IMG/VR virus record: IMGVR_UViG_3300025137_003799
Location: 1-64,000 of that record
Reading direction: 5' to 3' (one strand)
Origin: a virus
DNA: 64,000 nucleotides
This document shows positions 1,604-53,941 of the stretch, one piece after another. The position numbers and the translations under genes were made by a program. The notes beneath the pieces were generated by a model, which did no database searches, was not told the DNA's origin, and saw only the letters and a list, made by a program, of their open reading frames with translations. How positions within the stretch are numbered: position 1 is the stretch's first letter; the number at the start of each line of letters is the position of its first letter.

Positions 1604-2586
1604 TCTGGATTGACAATCGAACAGAATGGGATAGAGCAATTGCTCTAGAGATAGTGCTAAACCTAACAGACAGTTCAAGTATTACTGCTCTGGATTGCGG
1701 TATTGATGTACATCTAGCACAAGACGCCAAACATGCAAGTACAATTGCACAAGCATACGATCACAGTTTAATATTTCCTATCGGTTGGATAACATGCTTA
1801 TTGGGAGACTTTATAATACAGTACAGCAAACTGGAGGATCCCAATGACTGGCGTAAATTAGAATATATAATATTTAAAGTACCACCAACAAATAATTTAG
1901 ATCAAATTAATAATTTAAATATAAAAACCTCTAGGGATCGATGTTGCTATTATGCAACAAATACAGAGAACGTACACAAACTAAGAAGTTATGACTTCAA
2001 AGAAATTGTTATGCCCTGTAGTGGATTAATGCCCTGGGTATATGCAAGTCAGAGTATTAGGCCACTTGAACACAAGCGTTTCTTATTCTTTGACAGTTCA
2101 CCACTAAGTGTTAGTGTATATAAAGATATGTGTGCTACCTGGGATGGCAGAGATTATCCCACATGGTTAAGAAGTTATGTTGGTAGTGATATATTTAACC
2201 AAGCTCTATTTAGACAATTAAAAAATATAGATGATTACTGGATTCAAGTACAGGAACAAGTCCACGAAGCATGTGGATATACATTCTGGGAAGTCTGGCA
2301 ATCAAGTTTATCCGGCAGATATACACCTATTATAATACATGGTGATATAATGGACACTAGTATTCTAACACGTTTAAAAGTTGCTAATAGAAGAGATACA
2401 TTAGTATCATTTAGTAATATAATAGATTACGTTCCTTCTGCATTTTTAAATAGTAAAGAGGATATGAGAACCAGAGAAATTAAATTAAATAAATATCTTG
2501 AGGACAAATTACCTCTGGTTCAAATAATTCAAGCAGACAAAAAAAGAAGCACAGTTACTGATACTATGTTTCCATGGAGACAATAG
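1558..2586 (+). CDS. hypothetical protein
   Basis: 342-aa ORF overlapping the upstream gene end; start uncertain; no family recognised. Confidence 0.6.
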   Translation: MAKRIWGYSLHKRSLIWIDNRTEWDRAIALEIVLNLTDSSSITALDCGIDVHLAQDAKHASTIAQAYDHSLIFPIGWITCLLGDFIIQYSKLEDPNDWRKLEYIIFKVPPTNNLDQINNLNIKTSRDRCCYYATNTENVHKLRSYDFKEIVMPCSGLMPWVYASQSIRPLEHKRFLFFDSSPLSVSVYKDMCATWDGRDYPTWLRSYVGSDIFNQALFRQLKNIDDYWIQVQEQVHEACGYTFWEVWQSSLSGRYTPIIIHGDIMDTSILTRLKVANRRDTLVSFSNIIDYVPSAFLNSKEDMRTREIKLNKYLEDKLPLVQIIQADKKRSTVTDTMFPWRQ

Positions 2587-2757
2587 ATGGAAAGAACATT
2601 ATTAGATGGTACCGTGGTGCCGGAACTAGAAGAATCTACAGAGTTATGTATTAGAACACGGTGTCCAAACAAATATAAGTTAGTAGATATGGAAACAGGT
2701 GAAGAATATATTGGTAACCTCCCCCAAGATACTAAATGGAATTGGAGAAAAATATGA
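2587..2757 (+). CDS. small hypothetical protein (56 aa, MERTLLDG...)
   Basis: ATG directly after the upstream stop; its stop overlaps the next ATG (ATGA); below ORF-track cutoff. Confidence 0.6.
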   Translation: MERTLLDGTVVPELEESTELCIRTRCPNKYKLVDMETGEEYIGNLPQDTKWNWRKI

Positions 2758-2867
2758 TCAACCCTATTAAATGGATTAAGCAGAAAATTGCTGATTACAA
2801 ATACAAGAAGAGACTCAAAGCCAAGTTAAAGAAGCTGGCTGAACAAGATCCCTACATTTACGACTAG
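2754..2867 (+). CDS. small basic protein (37 aa) ending DPYIYD
   Basis: ATGA coupling; MINPIKWIKQKIADYKYKKRLKAKLKKLAEQDPYIYD. Confidence 0.55.
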   Translation: MINPIKWIKQKIADYKYKKRLKAKLKKLAEQDPYIYD

Positions 2868-2878
2868 AGGAAAAACTA

Positions 2879-3292
2879 ATGAAAATATTAATTTGTGGAC
2901 CAGAAGGCAGTGGTAAAACTACACTAGCAAAACCATTTGCAGAATTAATTGGAGGCGTGTATATAAACAAAGACAGTTATCAAAAGGAACTACGTGGCTA
3001 TGTTGACGGCATTGTTGCTTCAGGCAAGACAGTAGTAATTGATAAACGTTGTAATACAAACGAAGCAGTTCAGTACTTGGATCCCGATTATGTTGTATGG
3101 TTAGACATGCGTACATTAAAAACTGAACGTCCTTACAAAGTGGACTATCATGTAGCAAAATGGTTTAACGACACACATATTGAACTTATGGAAGTTGTAT
3201 CAAACTTTATGGAACGTAAAGCAAAGAGTGAAGAAGGAATGGGATCCATAACCTACTCAGACATGAAGCACGAAGATTGGCCAGAAGGTTAA
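2879..3292 (+). CDS. P-loop kinase, adenylylsulfate-kinase-like (short form)
   Basis: Walker A GPEGSGKT; GAGG RBS. Confidence 0.6.
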   Translation: MKILICGPEGSGKTTLAKPFAELIGGVYINKDSYQKELRGYVDGIVASGKTVVIDKRCNTNEAVQYLDPDYVVWLDMRTLKTERPYKVDYHVAKWFNDTHIELMEVVSNFMERKAKSEEGMGSITYSDMKHEDWPEG

Positions 3293-3325
3293 GACTTTAA
3301 GTACGCATACATTAGGTATTTTCCT

Positions 3326-3333
3326 TATAAATA
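3326..3333 (+). promoter_or_regulatory. T4-like late promoter TATAAATA upstream of csgF-csgG
   Basis: exact TATAAATA followed by AAGGAG RBS and ATG at 3351. Confidence 0.7.
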
Positions 3334-3350
3334 CAGATAAGGAGAGAACC

Positions 3351-3815
3351 ATGAAACTTTTATCAGTATTATTAGTGACTATTATGTATTGTTTACCTCA
3401 AGCCGCGGCCAGTGAGTTGGGTTGGAGTTTCAAAAGTCCTGCCTTTGTTTATGGTAACGGATATAGTCAACATGTACTGAGTGTCGAACAACTACAATTT
3501 AATCGTGCAAAAGATGTAGAAGATGAAAAAATTGCAGAAGCAGCCAGGATTGCTCGTGCATTATCCAATACAACTCTTAATAAGTTTATCAAAAATGTTG
3601 AATCAAGAATATATGCTACACTATCTAAACAAATGGTTGACGCCATGTTTGCGGAGTGTGGTTCCAGTTGTGCCTCAAGTGGTACAGCAGAAATAGAAGG
3701 TGCTCAAATAAGTTGGTCTAAGGATGCAACAACAGGTGAAATAACACTAACTGTTGTGGGTGCAGACGGCACAACTGAAATAAAAATCCCTGGCTCAGGG
3801 GAGTTTAATTTTTAA
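3351..3815 (+). CDS. csgF: curli assembly component CsgF-like
   Basis: signal peptide, then ELGWSFKSPAF..GNGYSQHVL resembling the CsgF N-terminus; directly upstream of csgG. Confidence 0.8.
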   Translation: MKLLSVLLVTIMYCLPQAAASELGWSFKSPAFVYGNGYSQHVLSVEQLQFNRAKDVEDEKIAEAARIARALSNTTLNKFIKNVESRIYATLSKQMVDAMFAECGSSCASSGTAEIEGAQISWSKDATTGEITLTVVGADGTTEIKIPGSGEFNF

Positions 3816-3816
3816 T

Positions 3817-4908
3817 ATGAAAAGCCTATCAGTACTGTTATTAATCCTATTAATGGGAGGTTGTGGTTCAACCACTAAAAAAAGTTTAGAAATATATCAG
3901 GATGCTGGTCCTCCCACACTACAGATATCACCTATAAATGAACGTATGAAAGGTGTACCTGAGCTTGATGGTAAAAAGATAACAATAGCAGTATATACTT
4001 TTACAGATAAAACTGGGCAGAGAAAGCCAAGTGATACTATGAGTAATCTAAGTTCAGCTGTTACACAAGGCAGTGAAGTATGGGTTATTAAGGCACTTGC
4101 TGATGTTGGCAATAGCACATGGTTTGAAGTTGTTGAACGTGTTGGTATGGATAATCTAATTAAAGAACGACAACTTATACGACAGACAAGAGAAGTATAT
4201 GAGAAAGAGTTACCCAACGGCCCAACACCATTAAAGCCTATGCGATTTGCAGGACTTATATTAGAGGGTGGTATTGTTGGTTATGATAGTAATATAGCAA
4301 TAGGTGGAACAGGCGCTCGTTACCTAGGCATAGGAGCACAGACAGAATACCGTGTTGACAATGTAACTATTGTAATGAGAATTGTAAGTGTTAGTACTGG
4401 CAAAGTGTTAATGAGTGTTGCAACACAGAAAACTATTGCAAGTTCAAGAGAAGGTGCTAATATATTCAAGTTCCTAGACTTGGGAACAAAACTACTGGAA
4501 ACAGAAACAGGGTACAGCGTTAACGAACCAGTTAACTACGCTGTTAGATCTGCTATTGAACAGGGTGTTATTGAATTAATATATGAGGGTGTAAGGAAGG
4601 AAATGTGGAAGTTTAAAACCACCAAAAAGGAAATAATCAAACCTGTAAAAAGGCTATCCAAAAAGATTAATCAAAAACCAACCGGCGAAGTTAAAGTTCT
4701 AAAAGGCAGAAAAGATGGCACTGACTTACCTACTATTACATATACTGCTAAGAAAATAGTATGGACTGGTAAATTACCCAAGCCTCGTCCACTAAAAGAA
4801 GTCGATGCATTGGCAAAATGGCCCAATCATAATCTAAAATGTGATAAGACTACTAAGCGATGTCTACCGGCTGAAAAGATAATAATCAACCATATCCCTC
4901 ACCCATAA
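3817..4908 (+). CDS. csgG: curli secretion channel CsgG (lipoprotein) with basic C-terminal extension
   Basis: lipobox LMGGC; AVYxFxDKTGQRKP, SAVTQG, WFxVVER, ERQLIR and EGGIVGYDSN motifs. Confidence 0.93.
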   Translation: MKSLSVLLLILLMGGCGSTTKKSLEIYQDAGPPTLQISPINERMKGVPELDGKKITIAVYTFTDKTGQRKPSDTMSNLSSAVTQGSEVWVIKALADVGNSTWFEVVERVGMDNLIKERQLIRQTREVYEKELPNGPTPLKPMRFAGLILEGGIVGYDSNIAIGGTGARYLGIGAQTEYRVDNVTIVMRIVSVSTGKVLMSVATQKTIASSREGANIFKFLDLGTKLLETETGYSVNEPVNYAVRSAIEQGVIELIYEGVRKEMWKFKTTKKEIIKPVKRLSKKINQKPTGEVKVLKGRKDGTDLPTITYTAKKIVWTGKLPKPRPLKEVDALAKWPNHNLKCDKTTKRCLPAEKIIINHIPHP

Positions 4909-5136
4909 TTATTTAATATTGTACTTCTTCATCTTTTGTATGAGAGTAACTCTACCGATGTTGAGCATCTTGGCAGCATGAGATTGATTACCCTTGCTAC
5001 TGTCGAGTGCCTCATTGATTCGAGATACCTCTAACTGTTTAAGTTCTGTATTAAGATCCAATCCATTAAATGAATCTTTAGGCCACATTTCCTCAAACAT
5101 ATCATGGAAGAAGGTGTTTTCTTCTACTGTTCCCAT
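4909..5136 (-). CDS. stand-alone Fis/NtrC-type helix-turn-helix protein
   Basis: INEALDSSKGNQSHAAKMLNIGRVTLIQKMKKY matches the HTH_8 pattern; start at MGTVEE preferred over 5205. Confidence 0.8.
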   Translation of the reverse strand: MGTVEENTFFHDMFEEMWPKDSFNGLDLNTELKQLEVSRINEALDSSKGNQSHAAKMLNIGRVTLIQKMKKYNIK

Positions 5137-5290
5137 ACCTGTATTTAGTGAAACTATTTTCACCGAAATATGCTTATAAGTGTAATAATATTTACACCTT
5201 TGCATAAATACTAGTAGCAGTTAATAATTCGAAATTGCTAATAAATAGTTATACGAACCTTATAACTTTGGAACCGGGGGGAGCCAAAAT

Positions 5291-5995
5291 ATGAAAATAA
5301 TTACCGCTGCTATAGCATTTATAGTGGCCATTTTTTTGCTAACATGTCAGTGTTTTGCAAATGACATATATATTCAACAAGTGGGCGATACACTTGACTT
5401 GGATATCGTACAGGATGGTCAGAATAACGTAATAGGTACAACAGGGCAAGATGTAGTATTAACTGGTGCCAATATGACGTTTAACATCACACAGACTGGC
5501 AACACCAATACAATTGCGGCACAGATCCTCGGTAGTACATATACAGGTACATGGGTATTTACTGGTAGCAGTAACACAGTTGATCTAAAGTGTAGCTCAT
5601 CAGCAACAGGTGATTGTGATAACGTAACTCTCAATATAGCAGGAACAGGATCAACACAGGACTATACAATTAAAATTGGTGAAGTTGCTGACGCTAGTGC
5701 TTCAGAAGTTACATTTAGTGTAACAGATGATGGCACAGTAATAACAACAGATATTGATGGAAAATCAGCAAAAGTTAATGTTACTATTAACAAAAACTCT
5801 TCAGTAGCATCAGGTGTTAACAATCTTGATATTAATCTTACTGGTGATGGTGATGTTGCTGGACATGAGATACAGTTAGACACAAAAGGCAGAGGTAATA
5901 CTATTGTAATCAATCAAAGTGGAATCAATGACAACAAGGTGGATCTTCATACAAATGGAGATGGCGGTAACGTTAACATAACACAGAGCGATTAG
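5291..5995 (+). CDS. curlin-like secreted beta-repeat protein 1
   Basis: signal peptide (CFA-N); repeated x-I-x-Q-x-G-x-x-N units; next to csgFG. Confidence 0.75.
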   Translation: MKIITAAIAFIVAIFLLTCQCFANDIYIQQVGDTLDLDIVQDGQNNVIGTTGQDVVLTGANMTFNITQTGNTNTIAAQILGSTYTGTWVFTGSSNTVDLKCSSSATGDCDNVTLNIAGTGSTQDYTIKIGEVADASASEVTFSVTDDGTVITTDIDGKSAKVNVTINKNSSVASGVNNLDINLTGDGDVAGHEIQLDTKGRGNTIVINQSGINDNKVDLHTNGDGGNVNITQSD

Positions 5996-7132
5996 ATGAT
6001 TAAACTTTTAATTGCCTTATTACTAATAACAACATCAGTATCTGCTCAGGTTGCGAACGGTGTCGGTGATATAGGTAAGATAAAAGGGTCAGGAGCACTA
6101 GAGCGTGGTAAAGAAGTTATCGTTGCTGAAAAAGGCGTAGCAGTACAAATGCAGGATACGGCTGTCACAGCAAGAGCAAGTATGCGTATCGACTTTATAG
6201 ATGAAACTCGTGTGGACATAACTGCACATAGTAGATTGCTTATAGATGATTTTGTATATGATCCAGCAAATGATGTAGGCAGTTTAAGTATAAAGGCTAC
6301 ATTAGGTACAGTACGTTATGCTAGTGGGCAAATTGCTAAAAAATATAAACAGAATGTAAAGATTCGAACTCCGAGTGCAACCATAGGTGTTCGTGGAACT
6401 GACTTTATTATGGTTGTCGACGAACTAGGCGGCTCAATGATTACTCTTCTCCCAAGCTGTGATACAGCGGGCGCCTGCTTCGTCGGTGAAATTAAAGTCG
6501 AAACTGATGCTGGGTTTGTTATTATGAACCAAGCGTTCCAAACAACAGTAACAAAACATTCAATGCGTAGACCAAGTCCACCTCTTGTGATTGACTTAGA
6601 TGAGGATCAGTTGAATAGTTTGTTAATATTGCGTAAACATAATCCTTATGTAGATGAACAGCGTGAGGAGTTCCTAAGGCAGAGAAAAATGGCAGACTTT
6701 CTGGGTATTGACTTCCTGCAATTTGATGGTTTAGATAGTGATGCACTGGTGGATAGCATTGAAAATATCTGGGTTACAGCTCTTGATGAGACAGATCAGA
6801 TGTTGGCTGACATGTTGTATGATATGTTGGATGAACTTAACAAGGCTTTAATGGCTTTGTTTATGGATGAACTTAGTTTACAAAATAGAAGTATGCTAAA
6901 ACAAGAAGGCAATGTATATGGATATGATCCAAAATCAGGAATTACGTTAAATAAGGAAGATCCCAATTGGGTTTGGATAAGAAACGATTATGATGAAGGC
7001 GGGCGTATACGATTAAGATTGTATATGGACCATGGATATAGATTAGATATAAAGCAAGGTGATTATGAATTATACAACTACAGGCTTGGCAACGGCACTG
7101 ACAATAGTATTAACATTACTCAAGTCAACTAG
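5996..7132 (+). CDS. FecR-domain secreted/periplasmic protein
   Basis: signal peptide; FxDET..SRLLIDDFVYDP, G.VRY.SG and IRTPSATIGVRGTDF FecR motifs. Confidence 0.88.
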   Translation: MIKLLIALLLITTSVSAQVANGVGDIGKIKGSGALERGKEVIVAEKGVAVQMQDTAVTARASMRIDFIDETRVDITAHSRLLIDDFVYDPANDVGSLSIKATLGTVRYASGQIAKKYKQNVKIRTPSATIGVRGTDFIMVVDELGGSMITLLPSCDTAGACFVGEIKVETDAGFVIMNQAFQTTVTKHSMRRPSPPLVIDLDEDQLNSLLILRKHNPYVDEQREEFLRQRKMADFLGIDFLQFDGLDSDALVDSIENIWVTALDETDQMLADMLYDMLDELNKALMALFMDELSLQNRSMLKQEGNVYGYDPKSGITLNKEDPNWVWIRNDYDEGGRIRLRLYMDHGYRLDIKQGDYELYNYRLGNGTDNSINITQVN

Positions 7133-8102
7133 TTTTGCTAACGATCTTTATGTAAATCAAGTAGGTGACAGTTTGACTCTAACTGTAACTCAGGATGGAG
7201 AAAATAATTCAGTAAGGAGTTTGAATACAACTAGTGGCAATGCCCAACTCAGTGGTGCTAATAAAACTTTTACAATAACACAGCAAGGTAACAGTAATAG
7301 AGCAGGTGTCTGGACAAACGGTACTACTCAGGTAATGACTCTTACACAGGAAGGTAATTCTAATGTAAGTAAGTTGGACAATCACGGAAACAATAATAAT
7401 ATGTCTGTTGTTATTGACGGCAACAATAATTCTACACATACTGAAATAGGTAATGGTGGCGATATCAATAATCAAATTGCAGTAACAATAGACAATGGTG
7501 ATAGTAATGCAGTATATACTGAAGTACAAAACGGCAGTACAAATAGTATAGATGTACAAATACATGAACAAAGCAACAACATCAGTAGAGTTACAGTAAA
7601 TGGCTCCAGCAATAGTATTAAAGCATACCAAGGCAAGCACGAAGATGGCTCAGTAGATTCTGATGAAACTGGCGACAATGATGTGTATTGGATTGTTAGC
7701 GGTAGTAACAATAATCTTGCAAGTTATCAAACAGATGACAACAATAATGGTGGACAGCATATTGCAAACTATGTAACAGGTAGTAGCAATGATGTAAAAC
7801 ATACACAGCGTGGAGCAGGTGATCATAAAGGATTCGTAGAAATTACTGGTGATAACAATAATGTTGAAGTATTACAAAGAGGCAACAGCAATGTGCAATT
7901 TGCAGATATAGTTTTAGATGACGGACACAATGTAAATGTTTTCCAACGTTACGGATCACATACAACTAATATTGATTTAACAAATGCAGGCGGTGGTTAC
8001 ACATTAGATTTAGATCAAACGGCAAACACAAATCAAACTTACAGTATCACAGGTACATGCACAACCTCAAGTGGCTGTGGACTAACAATTAATCAGTTTT
8101 AA
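7059..8102 (+). CDS. curlin-like secreted beta-repeat protein 2 (CsgA/CsgB-like)
   Basis: signal peptide (SFA-N); N/Q/G-rich repeats such as TITQQGNSN and TLTQEGNSN. Confidence 0.8.
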   Translation: MIMNYTTTGLATALTIVLTLLKSTSFANDLYVNQVGDSLTLTVTQDGENNSVRSLNTTSGNAQLSGANKTFTITQQGNSNRAGVWTNGTTQVMTLTQEGNSNVSKLDNHGNNNNMSVVIDGNNNSTHTEIGNGGDINNQIAVTIDNGDSNAVYTEVQNGSTNSIDVQIHEQSNNISRVTVNGSSNSIKAYQGKHEDGSVDSDETGDNDVYWIVSGSNNNLASYQTDDNNNGGQHIANYVTGSSNDVKHTQRGAGDHKGFVEITGDNNNVEVLQRGNSNVQFADIVLDDGHNVNVFQRYGSHTTNIDLTNAGGGYTLDLDQTANTNQTYSITGTCTTSSGCGLTINQF

Positions 8103-8160
8103 CCGGTATATAAACGTTTTTAACCTATAAGCAATAAATAGCAGTGGGGGAAGAACAAAT

Positions 8161-8652
8161 ATGATAGATCCAATTAGTGCGATTGCGATCGCAACAACGG
8201 CGTTTAATACAATAAAAAAAGGCTTTTCCGTTGGCCGAGACATCGAGTCTATGTACTCTGATGTAGGAAGATGGATGGGTGCAGTCTCAGATATTGACCA
8301 AGCATCTAAAATGAATAAGAAACCACCATTGTTTAAAAAGATATTTGCCGGCTCTTCTATTGAGGAAGAAGCTATGAATATTTTTGCGGCTCAGAAAAAA
8401 GCTGAGGCAATGGAGCAAGAACTTAGAACATATGTTAACATGGTTCACGGTCCAAGTAGTTGGAACGAAATCGTTGCACTTCAGGCTAAGATTCGTAAGG
8501 ATAGACAAAAGGCAATTTATGCCCAAGCAGAACGTCAACGAGAGATACTAAACGTCATAGGTATAGTCCTATTAGTAGGATTAATTGGTGCCGTGCTTGT
8601 AGGAGGCGTTATGATGGCAGTTGATGTGTTCGGACATCCGAGAACTTGGTAA
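8161..8652 (+). CDS. hypothetical protein with C-terminal TM helix
   Basis: MIDPISAIAIA N-terminus; hydrophobic C-terminus; AATAAATA at 8133-8140. Confidence 0.7.
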   Translation: MIDPISAIAIATTAFNTIKKGFSVGRDIESMYSDVGRWMGAVSDIDQASKMNKKPPLFKKIFAGSSIEEEAMNIFAAQKKAEAMEQELRTYVNMVHGPSSWNEIVALQAKIRKDRQKAIYAQAERQREILNVIGIVLLVGLIGAVLVGGVMMAVDVFGHPRTW

Positions 8653-8979
8653 ATGACACAGTTCGTATATGGTGACCTAATACTTGATCTTAGTAATTCT
8701 AATAAGGCATGCCTGTATAAAGACGACAAACTAATCTTTATGGGAGATGGTTACAAGGCAATACTACAACTTATAAGGCTTAGCAATGATGCTCCTGAAG
8801 TTAAAGAAAAGTTCAGAGCACAACTTGAGATGAGAGAGAAGCCTAAATTTAAAAGCAATGATCTAGATGCTTTAAGAAAAGAAGCTCTACTAGAGGAAGA
8901 AAAACGCAAATTAGAAATGCTCAAGAAGCCATTATCCAAACGTGCTGGAAAGAAAACATATGATAGGAGACTAATTTGA
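8653..8979 (+). CDS. hypothetical protein
   Basis: abuts both neighbours. Confidence 0.6.
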   Translation: MTQFVYGDLILDLSNSNKACLYKDDKLIFMGDGYKAILQLIRLSNDAPEVKEKFRAQLEMREKPKFKSNDLDALRKEALLEEEKRKLEMLKKPLSKRAGKKTYDRRLI

Positions 8980-9314
8980 TTCATATCATACTATCAATAT
9001 TCATGTTAATGTTAATGGCAACTCCAGTCTATCCATCCGGTAAGAACTATGGTGCAACTAAACAATATAGTCGTGAACAACAAATAAGACGTGGTGAGAG
9101 AATAGTTGTTCCACATACAACAGGCAGACTTGCTTGGAGGAAGATATTAAAAGGATCTCTTGTATGCATTTATGTTGGTGCTGGAAAAACAAACGAAACT
9201 ATCTTTACTGGTAAGACTGACAAATGTATGGGAACAATGCAAATACCCTATGAACCAGATGAGAATTTTAATTTAAAAGAAGCAATACAAAAACTAATAG
9301 AGGGTGCTGAATGA
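8976..9314 (+). CDS. hypothetical secreted protein
   Basis: signal-peptide-like N-terminus; 4-nt overlaps with neighbours. Confidence 0.55.
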   Translation: MIHIILSIFMLMLMATPVYPSGKNYGATKQYSREQQIRRGERIVVPHTTGRLAWRKILKGSLVCIYVGAGKTNETIFTGKTDKCMGTMQIPYEPDENFNLKEAIQKLIEGAE

Positions 9315-9532
9315 TGCACGCCTTTCTACTAATGGTATACTTGGGTCAAAAGGTAGTGTCTCAAGATATGTATTTTTATGATATTGACGAATGCAAATAC
9401 TTTGCTGAACGTATGACTAATCAACCAGCAGTTCCTAATCGTGTTGCTGGAGAAGGTGTACCAAAAACTAGAAAGTATATTGCAGTTTGTGAACCTCGTC
9501 GAGTTGATCCAGCAAAAACTAAGATTTACTAA
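9311..9532 (+). CDS. hypothetical protein
   Basis: ATGA coupling; two Cys. Confidence 0.55.
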   Translation: MMHAFLLMVYLGQKVVSQDMYFYDIDECKYFAERMTNQPAVPNRVAGEGVPKTRKYIAVCEPRRVDPAKTKIY

Positions 9533-9578
9533 TAACCGCTAAATAGTAGTACATAATATAAACCGGGGGGAGATAATT

Positions 9579-10055
9579 ATGAACACAAACGAATATGATG
9601 TCAAAGTAATTAAAGTCGTTGACGGCGACACAGTAGATGTAGACATTGATCTAGGATTTGGAGTAACACTAACTGATGAAAGAGTTAGAATCATGGGTAT
9701 TGATACACCAGAATCAAGAACAAGTGATAAAGTAGAAGACTTGTTTGGCGAGGCCGCTAAAGCAAGACTTAAAGAGCTTATGATTAATGGCGGTAAACTT
9801 ATTACTACTGAAGATCGCAAAGGCGAAGATATGAAAGGCAAGTTTGGACGTATCCTCGGAGATTTTAAAGTAGACTATAACGGTGAAATGAAAAAAGTAA
9901 CTGAGATTATGGAAGAAGAAGGACATTGTGTTCCTTATTTTGGTGGAAGCAAAGACGACACAGCGTCTGCACATATGGTAAACAGAACACGTTTACTTGC
10001 TGAAGGTGTTGTATCACAACAAGACTATGATGCTGCCGTCGAAAAAATGAAGTGA
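9579..10055 (+). CDS. thermonuclease (SNase) family nuclease
   Basis: VVDGDTV, RVRIMGIDTPE and GKFGRILG motifs. Confidence 0.9.
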   Translation: MNTNEYDVKVIKVVDGDTVDVDIDLGFGVTLTDERVRIMGIDTPESRTSDKVEDLFGEAAKARLKELMINGGKLITTEDRKGEDMKGKFGRILGDFKVDYNGEMKKVTEIMEEEGHCVPYFGGSKDDTASAHMVNRTRLLAEGVVSQQDYDAAVEKMK

Positions 10056-10085
10056 TAAGTACTTACATAATCTAAAGGAAAGACT

Positions 10086-11222
10086 ATGCTACCATTCAGA
10101 AGATCGGATACTGTTGAGTTAGAGATAACCAGCAAATGTACTCTAGCCTGCTCGCAATGTCCTAGAGTTAAGCAAAAAAACGACAAAGCTAGTTGGGATA
10201 ATGGTAACATAGATACTGATGTAGTAATCCAAGCAATCGATGATAAGATAAAAAAGATAATCGTATGTGGTGCATATGGTGATGCAATGTACCATCCTGA
10301 AATAGACAAAGTCCTTGAATCACTAAGTGATAAAAAGATTCCCTACTCCATGGATACAAATGGTAGTTATATTAAAGATGCAGTATGGGAACGTGTTGCA
10401 CCTCATATCTCTACAAGAGATGAATGGGTTTTTAGTGTAGATGGCACGCCAGATAATTTTACAACATACAGAGTAAATGGTCACTGGCCAAGTATTGAAA
10501 GTGGAATGCGTATCCTAGCTGACTATGGTTGCCAGATTCGCTGGAAATATATTGTTTTCAAGTACAATAGTTCATATGAGGATATCAAAACCGCCTATGA
10601 CAAAGCATGGGAACTAGGTGTAAGATGGTTCCAACTTGTGCATACAAAACGTGCATCGCCAGGACAATATGTAGCAATGGAAGAGTTCAGTGATGCTCTA
10701 AATCAAATAGAAGACTATGTTGGTAGTATTAAAAAAGAAGATTACCCAGCAGGTACAAACAGACCACCCAAACTAAGAATTGATATCCACCCAAGAATTA
10801 GAAAAGTAACTGAACAAGCAGGTGTTGAAAAAGTTTTAAATGTAGTAAAAACATCTATAACTAACAATGGCAGAACAATGATCACAAAGTCAAGTAAAGG
10901 CGGTACATCACCAGCATATAAGAATATATCTTCTCCCGTAACAGACTACCATACTACTAAAAAGGTATATCCACAATGTGTTAATGTTAAGAACTGGGCA
11001 CAGTTTATTAGTAGTGACGGTATTTACTTGCCTTGTTGTTATGTAAGAAGTGAGAAAAGTAGTCTTATAGAAGGTGCTGGTTTAACTAATGAAGATTTAG
11101 AAAGTATGAGTGTGTATAATCACAGCATAGATGAGATAGTTGTGGGCTCCGGATATCAGAAATTAATGAACAATTTTGATAATATTAGTGTATGTAAAGA
11201 CAAGTGTCCTGCTAAGAACTAG
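10086..11222 (+). CDS. radical SAM protein with C-terminal SPASM/twitch-like domain
   Basis: CTLACSQC; FSVDG; C-terminal C...PCC...CKDKC. Confidence 0.88.
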   Translation: MLPFRRSDTVELEITSKCTLACSQCPRVKQKNDKASWDNGNIDTDVVIQAIDDKIKKIIVCGAYGDAMYHPEIDKVLESLSDKKIPYSMDTNGSYIKDAVWERVAPHISTRDEWVFSVDGTPDNFTTYRVNGHWPSIESGMRILADYGCQIRWKYIVFKYNSSYEDIKTAYDKAWELGVRWFQLVHTKRASPGQYVAMEEFSDALNQIEDYVGSIKKEDYPAGTNRPPKLRIDIHPRIRKVTEQAGVEKVLNVVKTSITNNGRTMITKSSKGGTSPAYKNISSPVTDYHTTKKVYPQCVNVKNWAQFISSDGIYLPCCYVRSEKSSLIEGAGLTNEDLESMSVYNHSIDEIVVGSGYQKLMNNFDNISVCKDKCPAKN

Positions 11223-11233
11223 ATAAATACAAG

Positions 11234-13276
11234 ATGAAATACTTAACTCACTGGGCAACGGCTCTTTTAACAGCTTTTGTCCTAATCTTTGTCCACTATA
11301 CGGATAATTATGTTGTAGAAACGTTACGATTAAAAAGTTTCGATCTAATCCAACAAACAGATGAGCCAATCCATAGTAAAGATATTGCTGTGGTACAAAT
11401 AGACGAAGCCGCCATAGAAAAATATGGACAGTGGCCCTGGAAACGTGATATACTTGCAGAAGTTATCTGGAAGTTACGTGAAGCAGGCGCAGGCGTTATA
11501 GTTTTGCCAATACTGTTCAGCGAGGACGACAGATTAGGTGGTGATGGTGTACTTGCAGAAGCACTAGCTGGCAATGGTATTGTTATTGCACAGACAGGAA
11601 GTACACAAGCAAATAAGAATAGTGTTCCTAGAGGGGTTGCCAAAATAGGCGACCCTCTTCCTTTCTTGTTTGAATGGCCTGGTATGTTAGGACCTATACC
11701 ACTACTGGGCGATAACGCAGACGGAGTGGGCGTACTTAATACTGTACCAGAGATAGACGGTGTTGTACGCAGAGTTCCACTAATCATGCGTGTTGGAGAA
11801 GAAACGTATCCTAGTATTGCCGTCGAAGTTATTAGACTGGCAACAGGTGCTCCAAGTTATCAGATCAAAGCAAATCAGGGTGGGATAGAGAAAATCCGTG
11901 TTCCGGGCTACCCTATTATCAACACGGATCCTAACGGACAGATCTGGTTACGTTGGAACAAAACATTTGATACAGTTAGTCTAGCAGACGAAGATCAATT
12001 CTGGAGTTTGGAAGGTAAGACAGTTCTAGTTGGTATTACAGCAGAAGGACTAGGTGGAATTATTGCTTCACCTACAGGACCCAAGTACAATTATATACCA
12101 GCCGCTGTCACACTACAAACAGTACTTGATGGAGATCAAATACAAAGACCATATTGGGCATTCCTAACCGAACTTGCTGCCACGGCAATAGTTGGGTTAT
12201 CAGTTATTTTACTAGCCGCCTTTGCACCCTACTGGTTAGTAGCATTATCAATTATTGCTATAGGTGGTGGATTAATATGGGCTGTTATGTATGCCTGGAC
12301 AACACATTTATATCTATTAGACGCAAGTATACCCTTAATTGCACTAGTGCTGGTATCATTACATGCAGTATTCAATAGGTTTGTAAAAGAGTTTCAACTT
12401 AAACAACAAATTAAAAAGCAGTTTGAACATTATCTTGCACCAGCAATGGTTAAAAAACTGCAACAAGATCCTAGTTTATTAAAACTAGGAGGCGATACAC
12501 GTGAACTAACAATTATGTTTACGGATATCCGTGGGTTTACGCCAATTAGTGAACAGTATAAGACAAACCCTCAAGGTTTGACAACACTTATTAATAGGTA
12601 CATGACACCAATGACTGCTCTTGTAATGGAAAAAGAGGGTACAGTTGACAAATATATTGGAGATGCACTTATGGCTTTTTGGAATGCCCCACTGGATGTT
12701 CCTGATCAGAGAAGGCTTGCAACAGAAACAGCCATCCAAATGCTTGAACGTTTAGATTTACTGAACAAGGAGTTAGAGGATGAAGGACTTTTACCGTTAC
12801 GCATTGGTATTGGGATTAATACTGGTACTGTTGTTGTTGGAAATATGGGCGGTGAGCAGCGGTTCGATTATAGCGTACTTGGTGACGCTGTTAATCTTGC
12901 TGCTCGTCTCGAAGGTCAGTCTAAAGCATATGGACTAACATTCCTAATAGGCGAAGATAGTTTAGATATGACTTTGGATTTTGATTATATTGAATTGGAT
13001 TTAATTGCTGTTAAAGGTAAGACAGAAGGTATACGAATCTTTACTGTATTAATGGAAGACATAGAAGATGAGCAATGGAAGTTATGGCATGATGAAATGC
13101 TAATAGAATATCGCAATGGTAATTTTGATCTTGCAATTACAGAGATCAAAAAGTTACAAAAAGACGGCCCACCTACATTAAATGAATACTATAATGTAAT
13201 GTTAGACCGTTGTGAAGATATGATTGTTAATACTCCAGTTGATTGGGACGGAGTTTATGTAGCTACTAGTAAATAG
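11234..13276 (+). CDS. CHASE2-domain class III adenylate cyclase
   Basis: GQWPWxR and DGVVRR (CHASE2); TM helices; FTDIRGFT, DKYIGDA, GIGINTG and FDYSVLGDAVNLAARLE. Confidence 0.93.
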   Translation: MKYLTHWATALLTAFVLIFVHYTDNYVVETLRLKSFDLIQQTDEPIHSKDIAVVQIDEAAIEKYGQWPWKRDILAEVIWKLREAGAGVIVLPILFSEDDRLGGDGVLAEALAGNGIVIAQTGSTQANKNSVPRGVAKIGDPLPFLFEWPGMLGPIPLLGDNADGVGVLNTVPEIDGVVRRVPLIMRVGEETYPSIAVEVIRLATGAPSYQIKANQGGIEKIRVPGYPIINTDPNGQIWLRWNKTFDTVSLADEDQFWSLEGKTVLVGITAEGLGGIIASPTGPKYNYIPAAVTLQTVLDGDQIQRPYWAFLTELAATAIVGLSVILLAAFAPYWLVALSIIAIGGGLIWAVMYAWTTHLYLLDASIPLIALVLVSLHAVFNRFVKEFQLKQQIKKQFEHYLAPAMVKKLQQDPSLLKLGGDTRELTIMFTDIRGFTPISEQYKTNPQGLTTLINRYMTPMTALVMEKEGTVDKYIGDALMAFWNAPLDVPDQRRLATETAIQMLERLDLLNKELEDEGLLPLRIGIGINTGTVVVGNMGGEQRFDYSVLGDAVNLAARLEGQSKAYGLTFLIGEDSLDMTLDFDYIELDLIAVKGKTEGIRIFTVLMEDIEDEQWKLWHDEMLIEYRNGNFDLAITEIKKLQKDGPPTLNEYYNVMLDRCEDMIVNTPVDWDGVYVATSK

Positions 13277-13585
13277 TTATTTTTTCTTCTTAATATCGTC
13301 TGTATCAATATCTATCTTTCGACCAGTGGCTTTTTCGTATTCTTCTTTAAATTCCAATACCATATTCAGCTTTTGAGTTAATCGTATCATATCATTATCT
13401 AACATACGAACACGATCAATCAATCCAATCAGTGTCTTATTAGCATCACCGATAACTGGTTTAACTTCAGTAGTTACCCATTTCCAAACATAGTAGACAA
13501 AGTAGCCTAGGCCCATTGCCGCAATAATTGGAAATCCATATTGGTTAATTGCATCAACCAAACTAGTTGCCATTACTTTCACCAA
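13277..13585 (-). CDS. small membrane protein (GFPI motif, YvrJ/holin-like)
   Basis: YGFPIIAA TM segment plus coiled coil; paralog of 13980-14258. Confidence 0.65.
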   Translation of the reverse strand: MVKVMATSLVDAINQYGFPIIAAMGLGYFVYYVWKWVTTEVKPVIGDANKTLIGLIDRVRMLDNDMIRLTQKLNMVLEFKEEYEKATGRKIDIDTDDIKKKK

Positions 13586-13754
13586 TCTTTTTTAACCAAC
13601 CATCTTCAGTTACTTGATAAATATCACCAGGTTTATATAATGATGTTTCTTTTTTTGATCCATCCTTACATAACCCCATCACTTCGCCTTCCCAGTCTCC
13701 TTCAACTTTAAAGGCATCTCCGGCTTGAAATATATTATAATCAACCCACATCAT
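13563..13754 (-). CDS. hypothetical protein
   Basis: KPGDxxxVxxxGxL shared with 13751-13969. Confidence 0.6.
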   Translation of the reverse strand: MMWVDYNIFQAGDAFKVEGDWEGEVMGLCKDGSKKETSLYKPGDIYQVTEDGWLKKIGESNGN

Positions 13755-13969
13755 GATTCGATTTCCTCACCCTGGGTTATGTTTTGTTGCATGATATCAT
13801 CATACAAGTTTCCTTTGAATGATAGGTAACCATTATAGTTAACTTCAAATTGGTCTCCGGGTTTAAATATTCCTTGATCTATTGGATCATGCTTGTCGTC
13901 TGGATCTGCTTGATTTACTAATCTAAAACCATCCGGTAACTTAATAATATCGTAGTCTTTTAGGTACAT
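13751..13969 (-). CDS. hypothetical protein
   Basis: AGGAG RBS; paralog of 13563-13754. Confidence 0.65.
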   Translation of the reverse strand: MYLKDYDIIKLPDGFRLVNQADPDDKHDPIDQGIFKPGDQFEVNYNGYLSFKGNLYDDIMQQNITQGEEIES

Positions 13970-13979
13970 GTGTTTCTCC

Positions 13980-14258
13980 TTAGTCTCGACGTGCGTCCTC
14001 TTTTCCTTCGTTGGCCGCTATACGATCTACATTGGGCTTTACGTTTAGAGCGTAACTCATCAATGTATCTATTTTTACCAAATCATTGTTCATAGTTTGT
14101 ACTCTGTTATCCAATGCGTTGATAATTGCTTTGAGTCCCATTACACTACCTGTAACAGAACCTAATATAAATTTTAGTGTGGTAAAAACAAAGATACCAG
14201 ATGCTATCGCACCAGCTATCGGAAATCCTACTTCACCAACTAATCTTAAAAACTCCAT
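13980..14258 (-). CDS. small membrane protein (GFPI motif, YvrJ/holin-like)
   Basis: VGFPIAGA TM segment; RVQTMNNDLVKI similar to RVRMLDNDMIRL in its paralog. Confidence 0.65.
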   Translation of the reverse strand: MEFLRLVGEVGFPIAGAIASGIFVFTTLKFILGSVTGSVMGLKAIINALDNRVQTMNNDLVKIDTLMSYALNVKPNVDRIAANEGKEDARRD

Positions 14259-14311
14259 TTTATCCCCCCGGACTATAATACTATTTATTAAATACTAACA
14301 TAAATAATAGT

Positions 14312-14947
14312 ATGAAAAGAATGTTAATATTAACCGGCCCGCAAGGCAGTGGCAACCATCTATTCAGCAAAATATTTGCACTACATGAAAAAGTATTTGG
14401 ATGGAAAACTCTATTGAATACATATTGGGAAGGACATCATTATGAACCTTTTAATAAGTGTTGGAGAGATCCTAAAGAACTGCACCTATTTGATTGGACG
14501 CAGTCAGATCACTATGTAACTAGTATCAGTTGTCCATATTTCAAAGACGGTTTACCACAAGTACCTCCTTATCTTCAATTCATAGAAACTTCTTCACTTC
14601 ACTGTGAGATTGACGTTGTTATAATAGGTAGAGATACAACCATACTGGAGATGCAACAAAAACGAGTAAGAGGTATGGAAACTACAGGATTCTTCCTAGA
14701 GCAATTAGAAGATATATATTCAGCACAGACTAATGTAAGTTTTATAAGTCAGGAACTGTTATATCTATATAAGGGAATGTATTTGCAAAAAGTAGCAGAC
14801 GACTTAGACTTTCCTATTGCATTTTGGGATCCAGAAATTGAAGTTATATTGGAAAAAGATGCTAACAGAAAGTATGTTAAAACTGCAGATGAATATTGGT
14901 TAGACTTTGAAGTACAAAAAGAAATTAAAGACAGTAAAGATAATTAA
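14312..14947 (+). CDS. P-loop / sulfotransferase-like protein
   Basis: ILTGPQGSGNHL N-terminal loop; CATAAATA upstream. Confidence 0.55.
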   Translation: MKRMLILTGPQGSGNHLFSKIFALHEKVFGWKTLLNTYWEGHHYEPFNKCWRDPKELHLFDWTQSDHYVTSISCPYFKDGLPQVPPYLQFIETSSLHCEIDVVIIGRDTTILEMQQKRVRGMETTGFFLEQLEDIYSAQTNVSFISQELLYLYKGMYLQKVADDLDFPIAFWDPEIEVILEKDANRKYVKTADEYWLDFEVQKEIKDSKDN

Positions 14948-15654
14948 CGTTTAATATGTTGAAATGGATAACCAATCATTTCTTCGTACATATCCAACCA
15001 CAAATCTTCATAGTCTTGTCCCCATACGCCATTCCAAGGACCACCATTAGTAAAATGTAATGCTCTAATACCCTTAACATTAGACTCGTATTCACCTACG
15101 AGCCAATTCCATAATAACATTACTTCGCCTATCTGATCATCACGACACCATTCAAACCTATGTAACCATTTTGGACTTTTGTTACTAACACTAAGTGGAT
15201 GTAGTTGTTTACAACTAGGGTGTTCGTTGTTAAACACTATTAGACTACTCCAATTTTTACGAGGAAAAGTTAATTGAGGTTGGCCTCGGAACTTCTTGTC
15301 TGACTTGGGTATATAGTCATGATGCTTACATACAAATACAGCTCTATTTTTTGAGATCATTGAGTTTTCTATATGATCCAACATACTTGTTATGTCATGA
15401 CGAAATAAAAAATCACTATCTACAAACACACTCCAACCGGTATAGTCTTCCAAATATGGTATTAGGAAACGTGTATAAGTAAACTCTGTACTAGCAGGAT
15501 CGCCAGTAGGTCTAAAGTATAAATTATTCTCTCTAAGTTCATCTTGTTTTAGATGTATGACGTCAACAGGGTAACGTGCATATTTATGAATACTATATTC
15601 ACAAACCTCACTTGCTTCTTTTTGTTTGCTATCCCATCCTATATAAATTTTCAT
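14944..15654 (-). CDS. GT-A glycosyltransferase (GT8/CDI-like)
   Basis: IYIGWD, STEFTYTRF, FVDSD, PRKNWSS, WNWLVG and HFTNGGPW. Confidence 0.85.
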   Translation of the reverse strand: MKIYIGWDSKQKEASEVCEYSIHKYARYPVDVIHLKQDELRENNLYFRPTGDPASTEFTYTRFLIPYLEDYTGWSVFVDSDFLFRHDITSMLDHIENSMISKNRAVFVCKHHDYIPKSDKKFRGQPQLTFPRKNWSSLIVFNNEHPSCKQLHPLSVSNKSPKWLHRFEWCRDDQIGEVMLLWNWLVGEYESNVKGIRALHFTNGGPWNGVWGQDYEDLWLDMYEEMIGYPFQHIKR

Positions 15655-15669
15655 TCTTTTTCCATCTCT

Positions 15670-16641
15670 TTATTGACTCCGCCTGTGAGTACTTATACAT
15701 GGTCTTGCATTACTAAAATGAAGACTACGATTACTGTCATATTTATGATTTGTATCCTGTAAACTTTCTGGAAAGTTATAGAACTTTTCTGGATACCATA
15801 AGTTATTATACTGTATAAACTTAAAATCTCCTAGATAAAAATTGTCCTTTTCGAATCTAATTTCATTAAAGATACTTTTGTCTTTGAACATTCCCATCCT
15901 GTGTACACCATCTCTATAACTTAAATGTGGTAGCTCTAGTTTAAAGTCTGGATGTTTGATCTTCTGTAATTTGACACATGCCTTGTGAGCACCAGTGGCA
16001 AATGGGCTAAAGTGATTATTTCCACTAACATCAACGCCTGACTTTGTTAGGGTGACATCACAATATTCAAGTTCAAATGTATCATGTCTAATTTGTGGAA
16101 ACATATCACAAAATTCTTCGGGTGTATCAACTTCAGTATAGGGTGCTGTCCAATGCCAGGGAGTCTGATCTAGTTCAGGATACCATATATAGAAACAACG
16201 TATAGTATCCATTGGTTGTAGGAATGAAATAATAAACTTCTTATCACTTCCTGGATGGCTCTGATATCCTCTACCACTTGTATATAATTGTATAGGTGCT
16301 TCCTGCCCGTTAATTTTAATGTCTTTACTTAACCACAGTAATTTAAACAATTGATAACAGAGATAGATATCAGTATTACCTGTCCATTCTCTAGGCATAC
16401 TTTTATTAATAAAATATTCTATTATAGACGGATCCATGTTACGAAATCTTTCTATCTTCTCAGACAATAAACGTATCATATCTCCATGTGTCTTACTTTT
16501 CGGATCGGCATCGAACAGTGAACGTAATTGTTTACCACTTGATTCAAATTTTACTACTTTTGCTCTACTAGTTCGATTGATCCAATCATAAAACTTATGT
16601 AGTGCCTCTAAGTTTTTAGAGTTAATGCTTGACAAATACAT
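15670..16641 (-). CDS. hypothetical protein
   Basis: 323-aa ORF; minus-strand TATAAATA upstream. Confidence 0.65.
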   Translation of the reverse strand: MYLSSINSKNLEALHKFYDWINRTSRAKVVKFESSGKQLRSLFDADPKSKTHGDMIRLLSEKIERFRNMDPSIIEYFINKSMPREWTGNTDIYLCYQLFKLLWLSKDIKINGQEAPIQLYTSGRGYQSHPGSDKKFIISFLQPMDTIRCFYIWYPELDQTPWHWTAPYTEVDTPEEFCDMFPQIRHDTFELEYCDVTLTKSGVDVSGNNHFSPFATGAHKACVKLQKIKHPDFKLELPHLSYRDGVHRMGMFKDKSIFNEIRFEKDNFYLGDFKFIQYNNLWYPEKFYNFPESLQDTNHKYDSNRSLHFSNARPCISTHRRSQ

Positions 16642-16657
16642 GGGAATCCTATATAAT
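16629..16657 (+). promoter_or_regulatory. sigma70-type promoter
   Basis: TTGACA-N17-TATAAT, perfect consensus. Confidence 0.75.
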
Positions 16658-16663
16658 AGATAG

Positions 16664-16679
16664 TATAAATATATTTATA
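16664..16679. promoter_or_regulatory. bidirectional late promoter (TATAAATATATTTATA palindrome)
   Basis: perfect 16-bp palindrome made of two TATAAATA boxes between divergent genes. Confidence 0.7.
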
Positions 16680-16699
16680 TATCCCAAGGACACTCAAAT

Positions 16700-18365: not shown

Positions 18366-18631
18366 TGGCCAAATGGTTTAGCTCAGACGAGTACTTAATT
18401 TATGAGACAATGGATTTTACTAATATAAAAGAAGGACCTTTTGCTACATACGATGCAATTGCAAATATAGCCAGTCAGCTTTCACAGAATGGATTAAATA
18501 AGGGAGTAGATTGGGAACTAACAGAAGTTGGCATTAATACAGATGCTCAACAGGAAATACAAATAGAGTTTAGACGAAGCGAAGATGCTATGCTAATTAA
18601 AATAAAAGGACTAGAAAAAGTTCGTGGATGA
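18365..18631 (+). CDS. hypothetical protein
   Basis: translationally coupled ORF. Confidence 0.55.
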   Translation: MAKWFSSDEYLIYETMDFTNIKEGPFATYDAIANIASQLSQNGLNKGVDWELTEVGINTDAQQEIQIEFRRSEDAMLIKIKGLEKVRG

Positions 18632-53939: not shown

Positions 53940-53941
53940 TC

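Follow-up and report, generated by a model that had tools for sequence, protein, structure and literature searches.

A rearranged copy of the viral curli cassette, with a FecR-fold protein and a mosaic CHASE2 nucleotide cyclase, in an IMG/VR phage record

We report that the virus record IMGVR_UViG_3300025137_003799 of IMG/VR carries a rearranged, intact copy of the published viral type VIII secretion system (T8SS, curli) cassette of pelagiphage-type marine phages. The cassette lies in bases 1-64000 of the 79,710-base record (CheckV completeness 22%), and this stretch of 64,000 nucleotides, the whole of the DNA presented here, is referred to as the window. The cassette comprises csgF, csgG, a first curlin-like gene (curlin 1), a FecR-domain gene, a second curlin-like gene (curlin 2) and a gene for a CHASE2 receptor cyclase. 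New in the window copy are an interruption by a Fis-like gene, an insertion of 3.1 kb and the mosaic make-up of the cyclase. Comparison with relatives furthermore provides some insight into a flanking block of small genes, a FecR protein that has a PupR-like domain and lacks the anti-sigma part, and bacterial pairs of FecR-like and CHASE2 genes that occur without curli genes. The window copy adds no new kind of system; it is the comparison that sharpens the hypotheses about what the cassette does.

Using the window CsgG as query, tblastn against GenBank phages identified Pelagibacter phage HTVC008M (KC465899) and Methylophilales phage Melnitz (MZ577097), the latter with four records. Both have the six genes side by side, in the order csgF, csgG, first curlin-like gene, gene with a FecR domain, second curlin-like gene and adenylate/guanylate cyclase gene, and in Melnitz they are annotated as such. 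The full cluster including FecR, the second curlin and the adenylate cyclase has been described in podo- and myo-pelagiphages (mSystems 2022; PMC9599517), in a main text that does not name CHASE2. The 'curli operon' of HTVC008M/Melnitz-type phages is also treated in mSystems 2020 (PMC7029224) and AEM 2022 (PMC9004378), and neither the word FecR nor the word cyclase occurs in the main texts of these two papers. The original prediction had taken csgF and csgG to be the only curli genes known in phages, and this claim to novelty fails, since the whole cluster is in PMC9599517 and annotated in the Melnitz GenBank records. Its assumption of a viral origin agrees with the IMG/VR record and with the synteny to HTVC008M. 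No match between the region and GenBank phages was obtained with megablast. A carbamoyltransferase gene is present upstream of the cassette at window positions 74-1603 and has a counterpart, likewise upstream, in HTVC008M (27% identity, tblastn), and the synteny thus extends past the cassette.

The genes were assessed by calling of open reading frames (ORFs), Pfam scans covering the 26 ORFs within positions 74-19978, searches against the PDB and NCBIfam, and profile comparison using hhalign, and all six predicted genes proved to be real. CsgF scored 44.8 bits with Pfam (cut-off 25.8; E 1.8e-11) and matched phrog_35372 (E 6e-47); inspection shows a signal peptide, after which the mature N-terminus reads W-S-F-K-S-P-A-F-x-x-G-N-G, and phmmer returned no PDB match for it. 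For CsgG the Pfam and NCBIfam E-values were 4.3e-51 and 5e-57, respectively, and residues 2-268, a stretch that takes in the Cys in the lipobox region, matched E. coli CsgG in the PDB (3x2r; E 2.2e-52). When aligned with the E. coli protein, the Tyr of the constriction loop is not conserved and Leu replaces Phe. Moreover, CsgG ends in a Lys-rich extension of ~95 aa that has no counterpart in E. coli CsgG, HTVC008M or Melnitz, the tblastn match to the latter two being confined to residues 32-271. The tail is also present in several IMG/VR relatives (L004-L010, L013 and others), where the matches reach residue 351 or beyond.

Curlin 2 scored 19.5 bits against Pfam Curlin_rpt, over four stretches and under the cut-off of 20.7. 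Its family profile (A6) matched the curlin-repeat protein 8c50 (E 4.7e-16) and CsgA 8enq (E 0.007) in the PDB, and the NCBIfam models of CsgB (E 9e-6) and CsgA (E 3e-5) matched under their cut-offs. The start of curlin 2 overlaps the 3' end of the FecR gene by about 70 nt. Curlin 1 gave no curlin match in Pfam or the PDB, and its link to the curlins runs only through curlin 2, of which it is a paralogue (hhalign probability 99.7, E 7e-26, 137 columns); a signal peptide is present, both ends contain Q-x-G-x-x-N repeats, and there is a conserved Cys pair. CsgE, CsgC and CsgD were not found by Pfam among the scanned ORFs, which is in keeping with the original prediction. These matches show that the phage encodes a CsgG pore protein and its CsgF partner, together with two putative secreted curlin-repeat proteins.

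To follow the cassette across viruses, 75 IMG/VR loci were fetched via CsgG and searched with the window proteins. CsgF was present in 74 of these, the single miss beginning at csgG, and the FecR-like protein in 71, the four misses ending less than 900 b after csgG. The cyclase was found in 52 loci; 21 of the 23 misses have at most 1104 b after FecR. Of the other two, L067 ends 4088 b after FecR and its three sibling loci have the cyclase 5351 b after FecR, and L036, in which the cyclase was not found in the 2578 b after FecR, is the only unclear locus. Cyclases not cut by a contig end (46/52) are about 610-700 aa long and match over the whole query. The six cassette genes are co-inherited across related phages, and the order csgF-csgG-curlin-FecR-(curlin)-cyclase recurs in HTVC008M, Melnitz and the 52 IMG/VR loci. 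The original prediction had asked for such a survey of synteny and had named missing co-conservation of FecR and cyclase with the curli genes as the result that would speak against it; both genes were found to be retained, with the misses at contig ends save for L036.

The FecR-like protein scored 33.4 bits with Pfam FecR (cut-off 24; E 6.5e-8). By inspection it begins with a cleavable-looking signal peptide and continues as a beta domain from about residue 20, and neither inspection nor the model revealed a cytoplasmic anti-sigma domain or a transmembrane (TM) anchor. No partner extracytoplasmic function (ECF) sigma factor or TonB-dependent transducer was present among the 26 scanned ORFs, nor in the annotated neighbourhoods of HTVC008M and Melnitz. 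A homologue search over 1.84 billion representatives yielded 121 clusters with an E-value limit of 1e-30 and 1501 with a limit of 1e-10. The AlphaFold 2 model, generated from 70 sequences taken from the loci and this search, had a mean predicted local distance difference test (pLDDT) value of 85.5; an earlier model based on 17 sequences (pLDDT 58) was too poor to use. In the model a beta domain (residues 20-200, pLDDT about 97) is joined through an ill-defined helical linker to a second, small beta domain (residues 310-378, pLDDT about 93).

Alignment with VIA-align matched the N-terminal domain of the model to the periplasmic cell-surface-signalling domain of PupR, solved in a complex (6ovk; Z 15.1, root mean square deviation (rmsd) 2.6, 135 aligned residues), and to the Parabacteroides anti-sigma factor BDI_1681 (Z 14.1). 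The N-terminal domain dominated the fold matches, and an Atlas search with residues 200-378 gave no usable match. Residues 20-114 also match, weakly, the anchoring domain 5ix9 of a Marinomonas adhesin (Z 7.5, rmsd 2.2, 73/76 residues, 27% identity), which is at the same time the top PDB sequence match of the FecR family profile (E 0.0033). NCBIfam retention_LapA (NF033682) matched bacterial relatives weakly and under its cut-off (E 0.001-0.004) and did not match the window protein; the possible likeness to a LapA-type retention module, suggested by profile and model, is taken as a lead only. The viral FecR-like C-termini all end in G-x-G-x-N-x-I-x-I-x-Q (...NSINITQVN in the window copy) with Q376 invariant in 17/17 viral proteins, and they resemble the ends of curlin 1 (...DVDITQSD, also given as ...NVNITQSD) and curlin 2 (...LTINQF). 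A C-terminal [ILV]x[ILV]xQx(0-2) occurs in three of the 159 window ORFs of at least 60 aa, and these are exactly the consecutive genes curlin 1, FecR and curlin 2.

For the cyclase, Pfam identified CHASE2 at residues 15-325 (E 2.6e-42) and Guanylate_cyc at residues 423-598 (E 2.2e-20). With TM segments assigned by inspection, the layout is one TM segment, a periplasmic CHASE2 domain (about 25-315), three TM segments, the catalytic domain (421-600) and a C-terminal tail. The best PDB matches are class III adenylate cyclases, e.g. CyaB (3r5g; E 1e-29), and the catalytic residues D431, K473, D477, S547, N554 and R558 are all present; from the class III cyclase literature we take D431 and D477 to be the metal-binding Asp pair, K473 the substrate Lys, S547 the residue at the second substrate-specifying position, and N554 and R558 the transition-state residues. 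The same set is found in five aligned bacterial FecR-linked cyclases. Among the viral cyclases of alignment A2, L012, L015, L024 and 12 others have Ser at the catalytic Asn position. Judged by these features, the phage encodes a FecR-fold protein predicted to be exported and a predicted inner-membrane CHASE2 class III cyclase with complete catalytic residues.

The two halves of the cyclase have different relatives. The window CHASE2 domain is 69-80% identical to one viral CHASE2 type, and the window catalytic domain is 41-46% identical to the majority viral type, 59-62% to Thalassospira and 61% to the viral locus L077. Conversely, the majority viral catalytic domain is 75-91% conserved over two CHASE2 types whose mutual identity is only about 35%. 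Phylogenetic trees of 51 rows were computed with midpoint rooting, the phage-type rows being viral contigs, GenBank phages and cassettes in bins of metagenome-assembled genomes (MAGs). In the catalytic tree the window groups with 10 bacterial and 4 phage-type rows, including HTVC008M (support 100/99), and the remaining 36 phage-type rows, including Melnitz, are on the other side. The CHASE2 tree (quick method) separates phage-type from bacterial rows: the window groups with all 40 others of phage type (99), within a viral clade of 17 rows (97). Trees and domain identities together indicate that the sensor and catalytic parts have different histories; because of the long branches and the midpoint rooting, the ancestral catalytic lineage cannot be named. 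On this evidence the window cyclase is a mosaic of a viral-type CHASE2 sensor and a bacterial-type catalytic domain, and the sensor and catalytic domains of phage cyclases appear to recombine independently.

When the FecR alignment was searched against one genome per species, 80 loci were obtained, and after nine phage-like cassettes had been set aside 71 others were left. A CHASE2 protein is encoded within 10 kb of the FecR-like gene in 24 of these 71 non-phage bacterial loci, a count made with a hidden Markov model that was partly built from the same loci. The co-occurrence of CHASE2 and FecR proteins in bacteria, as stated in the original prediction, is thus borne out, and it is also in print (PMC5192318, PMC5498481). 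Beside the FecR-like gene, Thalassospira mesophila encodes a full-length CHASE2 cyclase, and so do bins of Alphaproteobacteria, Myxococcota, Planctomycetota, Spirochaetota, Omnitrophota and Elusimicrobia. A tetratricopeptide repeat (TPR) protein is encoded upstream in 3/3 loci scanned for it (L104, L158, L094), and the bacterial FecR-like/CHASE2 cyclase loci have no curli genes. Pelagibacteraceae encode a CHASE2-SpoIIE protein followed by a 438-aa protein (DUF2860-like in L155) and a 191-aa FecR-like protein, with a GAF-SpoIIE protein nearby and no curli genes. This SAR11 cassette also has a 345-aa unknown protein (L131 6629-12897, L155 8605-11493 and about 15 other Pelagibacteraceae loci). 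Twenty residues are invariant over the viral, bacterial and SAR11 FecR-like N-terminal domains. Published examples are a Burkholderia operon with the order response regulator, LysM/FecR, CHASE2 kinase and DUF4136 (PMC5192318), and S. meliloti, where the FecR-domain gene smc02177 adjoins the CHASE2 cyclase gene cyaD1 and the TPR protein SMb20495 is among the cAMP/Clr targets (PMC5498481). Locus L144 of Myxococcota looked like a FecR-CHASE2-cyclase fusion; this was dismissed, as the FecR match and the over-extended cyclase ORF are in different frames.

Table 1 Features of the window in and around the curli cassette
Feature	Position	Strand	Basis or remark
TATAAATA box, T4-type late-promoter consensus	3326..3333	+	end 18 nt 5' of csgF start codon
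csgF, 154 aa	3351..3815	+	Pfam CsgF
csgG, 363 aa, lipoprotein pore subunit	3817..4908	+	Pfam, PDB, NCBIfam CsgG
Fis-like small DNA-binding protein, 98 aa	4909..5205	-	Pfam HTH_8, residues 55-95
Curlin-like protein 1, 234 aa	5291..5995	+	hhalign paralogue of curlin 2
FecR-fold predicted periplasmic protein, 378 aa	5996..7132	+	Pfam FecR, AlphaFold 2 fold
Curlin-like protein 2, 347 aa	7059..8102	+	family profile vs PDB; Curlin_rpt below cut-off
Four small ORFs	8161-8652, 8653-8979, 8976-9314, 9311-9532	+	no Pfam family
SNase-type nuclease	9579-10055	+	Pfam SNase E 1.7e-9
Radical SAM/SPASM gene	10086-11222	+	Pfam Radical_SAM E 1.4e-7, SPASM E 0.0021
CHASE2 receptor class III nucleotide cyclase, 680 aa	11234..13276	+	Pfam CHASE2 and Guanylate_cyc
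Block of four small genes incl. two phrog_18771 paralogues	13277..14258	-	PHROG match

The cassette is interrupted at two places in the window (Table 1), and the original prediction left out the Fis-type gene, the six ORFs between curlin 2 and the cyclase, and the conserved status of the block at 13277-14258. The Fis-like protein matched Pfam HTH_8 (E 4.4e-14), the helix-turn-helix domain of FleQ (E 3e-5) and E. coli Fis (E 4e-4) in the PDB, and, below the cut-off, NCBIfam Fis (E 2.3e-7). Its gene is present in 23/75 loci, 22 times divergent and directly upstream of csgF, and the window position between csgG and curlin 1 is common only to L004. Between curlin 2 and the cyclase the window has 3.1 kb with six genes. 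The distance from the FecR end to the cyclase start varies between 21 and 5351 b over the 52 loci (4102 b in the window), and the space after curlin 2 is therefore read as a variable insertion site with the SNase and radical SAM genes as cargo. Homologues of the SNase gene are found elsewhere in 15/75 loci and of the radical SAM gene in one. Of the small ORFs, those starting at 8161 (phrog_32327), 8653 and 9311 occur in 19, 18 and 14 of the 75 loci, respectively, placed before csgF or in the space that separates curlin 2 from the cyclase, and the one starting at 8976 was found by tblastn in none.

In the block downstream of the cyclase, the paralogues at 13277-13585 and 13980-14258 have a TM segment plus a coiled coil (phrog_18771, E 2e-32 and 2e-29) and enclose two small soluble ORFs. 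The pair is present in 51/75 loci: upstream of csgF on the plus strand in 25, downstream of the cyclase on the minus strand in 24, and downstream on the plus strand in 2. In 23 of the 24 loci without it a contig end truncates one flank of the cassette, and the pair may lie beyond that end; L070 lacks it despite having both flanks. The small TM paralogues matched no Pfam, NCBIfam or named Atlas family; Atlas returned viral hypothetical proteins only, with YvrJ (0.89) as a lead only. The 'histidine kinase' genes placed before csgF in PMC9599517 may be these paralogues.

With respect to expression, ATAAATA occurs no more than 60 nt upstream of three of the six cassette genes (csgF, curlin 1 and the cyclase), and likewise upstream of the ORF starting at 8161; the 60 nt that precede csgG, FecR and curlin 2 lack it. 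Across the window TATAAATA is not enriched (7 found vs 10.65 expected). The original prediction, according to which most of these genes are preceded by TAAATA late-promoter boxes, therefore stands in part: there is a full box before csgF and an ATAAATA before curlin 1 and the cyclase, with no enrichment and none before the other three genes. Scans for sigma-70 promoters and terminators in the window gave chance level only. We infer that the cassette is expressed late. A CCGGGGGGA-type motif was also noted at 5270-5280, 9558-9568 and 14268-14277 (minus strand), about 10-15 nt before the start codons of three genes, namely those for curlin 1, the SNase and the small TM protein at 13980-14258; it is probably a strong ribosome-binding site common to the first genes of transcription units.

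Other characteristics of the record concern its gene content and size. No tRNA genes or Rfam families were found in the window. Radical SAM genes are unusually many, about a dozen ORFs (PHROGs or Pfam) over the 79.7 kb record with several in tandem runs; they are located at 10086-11222, 18887-19978, 29345-30241, 35290-36495, 51986-53395, 53927-57553 and 61959-63209 in the window, and at 261-2778 and 6345-9715 of L159. Auxiliary genes at 24526-25218, 29345-30241 and 45139-46320 encode a GTP cyclohydrolase and a QueE-like protein (both of the 7-deazaguanine pathway) and a tryptophan-halogenase-like protein. Close relatives of the window CsgG are present on very long viral contigs (L076, 299,910 b; L068, 221,447 b), which together with the low completeness of the record suggests jumbo-sized relatives of the pelagimyophages, and the source phage may be much larger than the 141-147 kb isolates HTVC008M and Melnitz. 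Complete phage-type cassettes are also found in nine MAG-bin loci (L079-L085, L087, L090) labelled Legionellales, Rhodobacteraceae, Pirellulales, Polynucleobacter, Flavobacteriaceae, Luteolibacter and Rickettsiales. Most likely, phage contigs have ended up in bacterial bins here, and the bin labels are therefore uninformative on hosts.

As the best joint explanation of these data we suggest, with about equal measures of confidence and reserve, that the viral curli cassette would constitute an envelope device with the FecR-like protein as adaptor and the cyclase as output; a trans-envelope sensor is plausible on sequence grounds. The cassette would be a composite in which a curli export unit has been joined to a bacterial envelope pair of FecR-like protein and CHASE2 sensor. 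The bacterial pair is usually beside a TPR protein, and in the phage CsgG/CsgF and the curlins would take that outer place. After late expression the curlins would be exported by CsgG/CsgF. The FecR-like protein, with an N-terminal part that would be too folded for the CsgG pore and a curlin-like tail motif, would stay in the periplasm as adaptor between the pore or fibre and the CHASE2 domain; the cyclase would then turn the state of the envelope into cAMP. A more specific version appears unlikely to us: the FecR-like protein would be the missing periplasmic part of the viral curli machine and dock under the pore or on CHASE2, with its C-terminal strand pairing with curlins, and the cyclase would read fibre export or load (contact, superinfection, envelope damage) into phage-private cAMP. 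If this were true, swapping of CHASE2 types and catalytic lineages would mean separate retuning of input and output. The cAMP would be private to the phage, as Pelagibacteraceae seem neither to make (class III) nor to read (cNMP-binding) cAMP.

Several observations weigh against such a sensor with cAMP output. The cyclase gene lies 4.1 kb from the FecR gene, with unrelated cargo between them, and probably forms a transcription unit of its own. The definition of the C-terminal motif came after these proteins had been viewed; with hhalign, the C-termini of FecR and curlin 2 aligned at a probability of only 1.2% (E 0.042) and FecR and curlin 1 aligned through their signal peptides alone, and because the profile comparison gives homology no support the common tail is kept as a motif observation only. 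In bacteria the pairing is frequent, not obligatory, as only the 24/71 loci have CHASE2 within 10 kb, and the S. meliloti FecR-domain gene by cyaD1 is reported not to be required for signal perception (PMC5498481). In addition, Ser occupies position 554, i.e. the catalytic Asn position, in 15/16 other viral rows of alignment A2, with Asp at 547, which casts doubt on cAMP synthesis as the conserved output. In 4/4 Pelagibacteraceae genomes with the SAR11 cassette, all of which may be incomplete, neither PF00211 (class III cyclase) nor PF00027 (cNMP-binding) was found, and PF00027 was not found in the phage record, itself a fragment; hence no cAMP receiver is in sight in the phage record or in Pelagibacteraceae, a candidate host group only. 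A complex prediction for FecR residues 20-200 and CHASE2 residues 25-315 (alignments of 30 rows each) scored 0.00 against a mark of 0.32; this is no answer and favours neither side.

Other explanations have been proposed in print. Curli-type fibres might clump hosts ('sibling capture') or shield the cell from superinfection, FecR and cyclase only regulating expression and building no physical device across the envelope (PMC9599517, PMC7029224). The two curlin-type proteins with signal peptides, together with CsgG and CsgF, speak for such a fibre, and expression in metatranscriptomes is reported in PMC9599517, but clumping was not seen in Melnitz-infected cultures according to PMC9004378. Moreover, both a DNA-binding and an anti-sigma part are missing from the FecR-like protein, neither CsgD nor CRP is encoded (scanned ORFs and record), and late expression near lysis would leave little time for transcriptional feedback; we regard this explanation as doubtful. 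Improbable in our view is that CsgG/CsgF acts as a gated outer-membrane channel which depolarises or opens the envelope late, timed by small membrane proteins and the cyclase, as proposed from Melnitz structure models and synteny (PMC9004378). The pair of small TM paralogues that flanks the cassette in 51/75 loci, the late-type box before csgF and the altered CsgG constriction loop would fit a role in timing lysis. [quoted passage not shown]

The name FecR in Pfam, the lack of a recognisable CsgE gate and an option raised in PMC9599517 could point to uptake of iron or nutrients, with FecR sensing ferric citrate or a siderophore and an open CsgG pore importing it. This is the least supported reading and we consider it very improbable: the cytoplasmic anti-sigma domain and TM segment of a true FecR are missing, the 26 ORFs include no ECF sigma factor or TonB-dependent transducer, and in its close bacterial relatives the partner is a CHASE2 sensor instead of an iron transporter. 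'FecR' would here rather denote an exported PupR-fold protein, according to sequence and model, than an iron regulator. Whatever its function, the cassette occurs widely among ocean phages that infect the most abundant marine bacteria, and PMC9599517 reports it at all 65 GOV2.0 stations; it would give the infected cell a predicted envelope structure not possessed by the hosts which the papers name. The window cyclase keeps the canonical bacterial residue set, whereas most phage copies have Ser at the catalytic Asn position.

Compared with known systems, the window cassette is most like the viral T8SS of HTVC008M and Melnitz, the six genes agreeing in identity, order and strand and the setting being that of a T4-like marine phage, with identities to HTVC008M and Melnitz of 53.5% and 50.8% for CsgG (residues 32-271), 48% and 45% for FecR, and 51% and 53% for the cyclase, respectively. 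It differs in the Fis-like gene between csgG and curlin 1, the six genes (3.1 kb) before the cyclase and the 95-aa CsgG tail. A further difference is that the small-gene block of the window is located downstream on the minus strand, and the bacterial-like lineage of the cyclase catalytic domain is common to the window and HTVC008M, not to Melnitz. With E. coli curli (csgBAC/csgDEFG) it shares a homologue of the CsgG lipoprotein nonamer pore, CsgF and putative secreted proteins with Q-x-G-x-x-N repeats of curlin type. Unlike the E. coli system, no CsgE, CsgC or CsgD was found among the scanned ORFs, CsgA and CsgB have their place taken by two long, divergent subunits of 234 and 347 aa, the constriction loop of CsgG differs, and a FecR-fold protein and a receptor cyclase are part of the cassette; CsgE, CsgC and CsgD are also missing from many non-gammaproteobacterial curli loci (PMC9599517).

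The FecR-like protein resembles the FecR/PupR anti-sigma regulators in the fold of the periplasmic domain and differs from them in having no cytoplasmic anti-sigma domain, TM anchor, partner sigma factor or TonB-dependent transducer. A weak, possible resemblance (residues 20-114) is to the N-terminal 'cell surface anchoring domain' of the Marinomonas ice-binding adhesin (5ix9, LapA-type retention module), which differs in being part of a giant type 1-secreted adhesin and not of a curli system. Finally, in the bacterial FecR-like/CHASE2 cassettes (smc02177/cyaD1, the Burkholderia operon, L104, L158, L094, L123 and L152) the FecR-like protein shares only residues about 20-200 with the phage protein and the third part is a TPR protein or lipoprotein; as in the phage, an exported FecR-domain protein is encoded beside a CHASE2 membrane sensor, and in the alphaproteobacterial and other bacterial loci this sensor is a class III cyclase with the K, S, N and R residues of the window cyclase.

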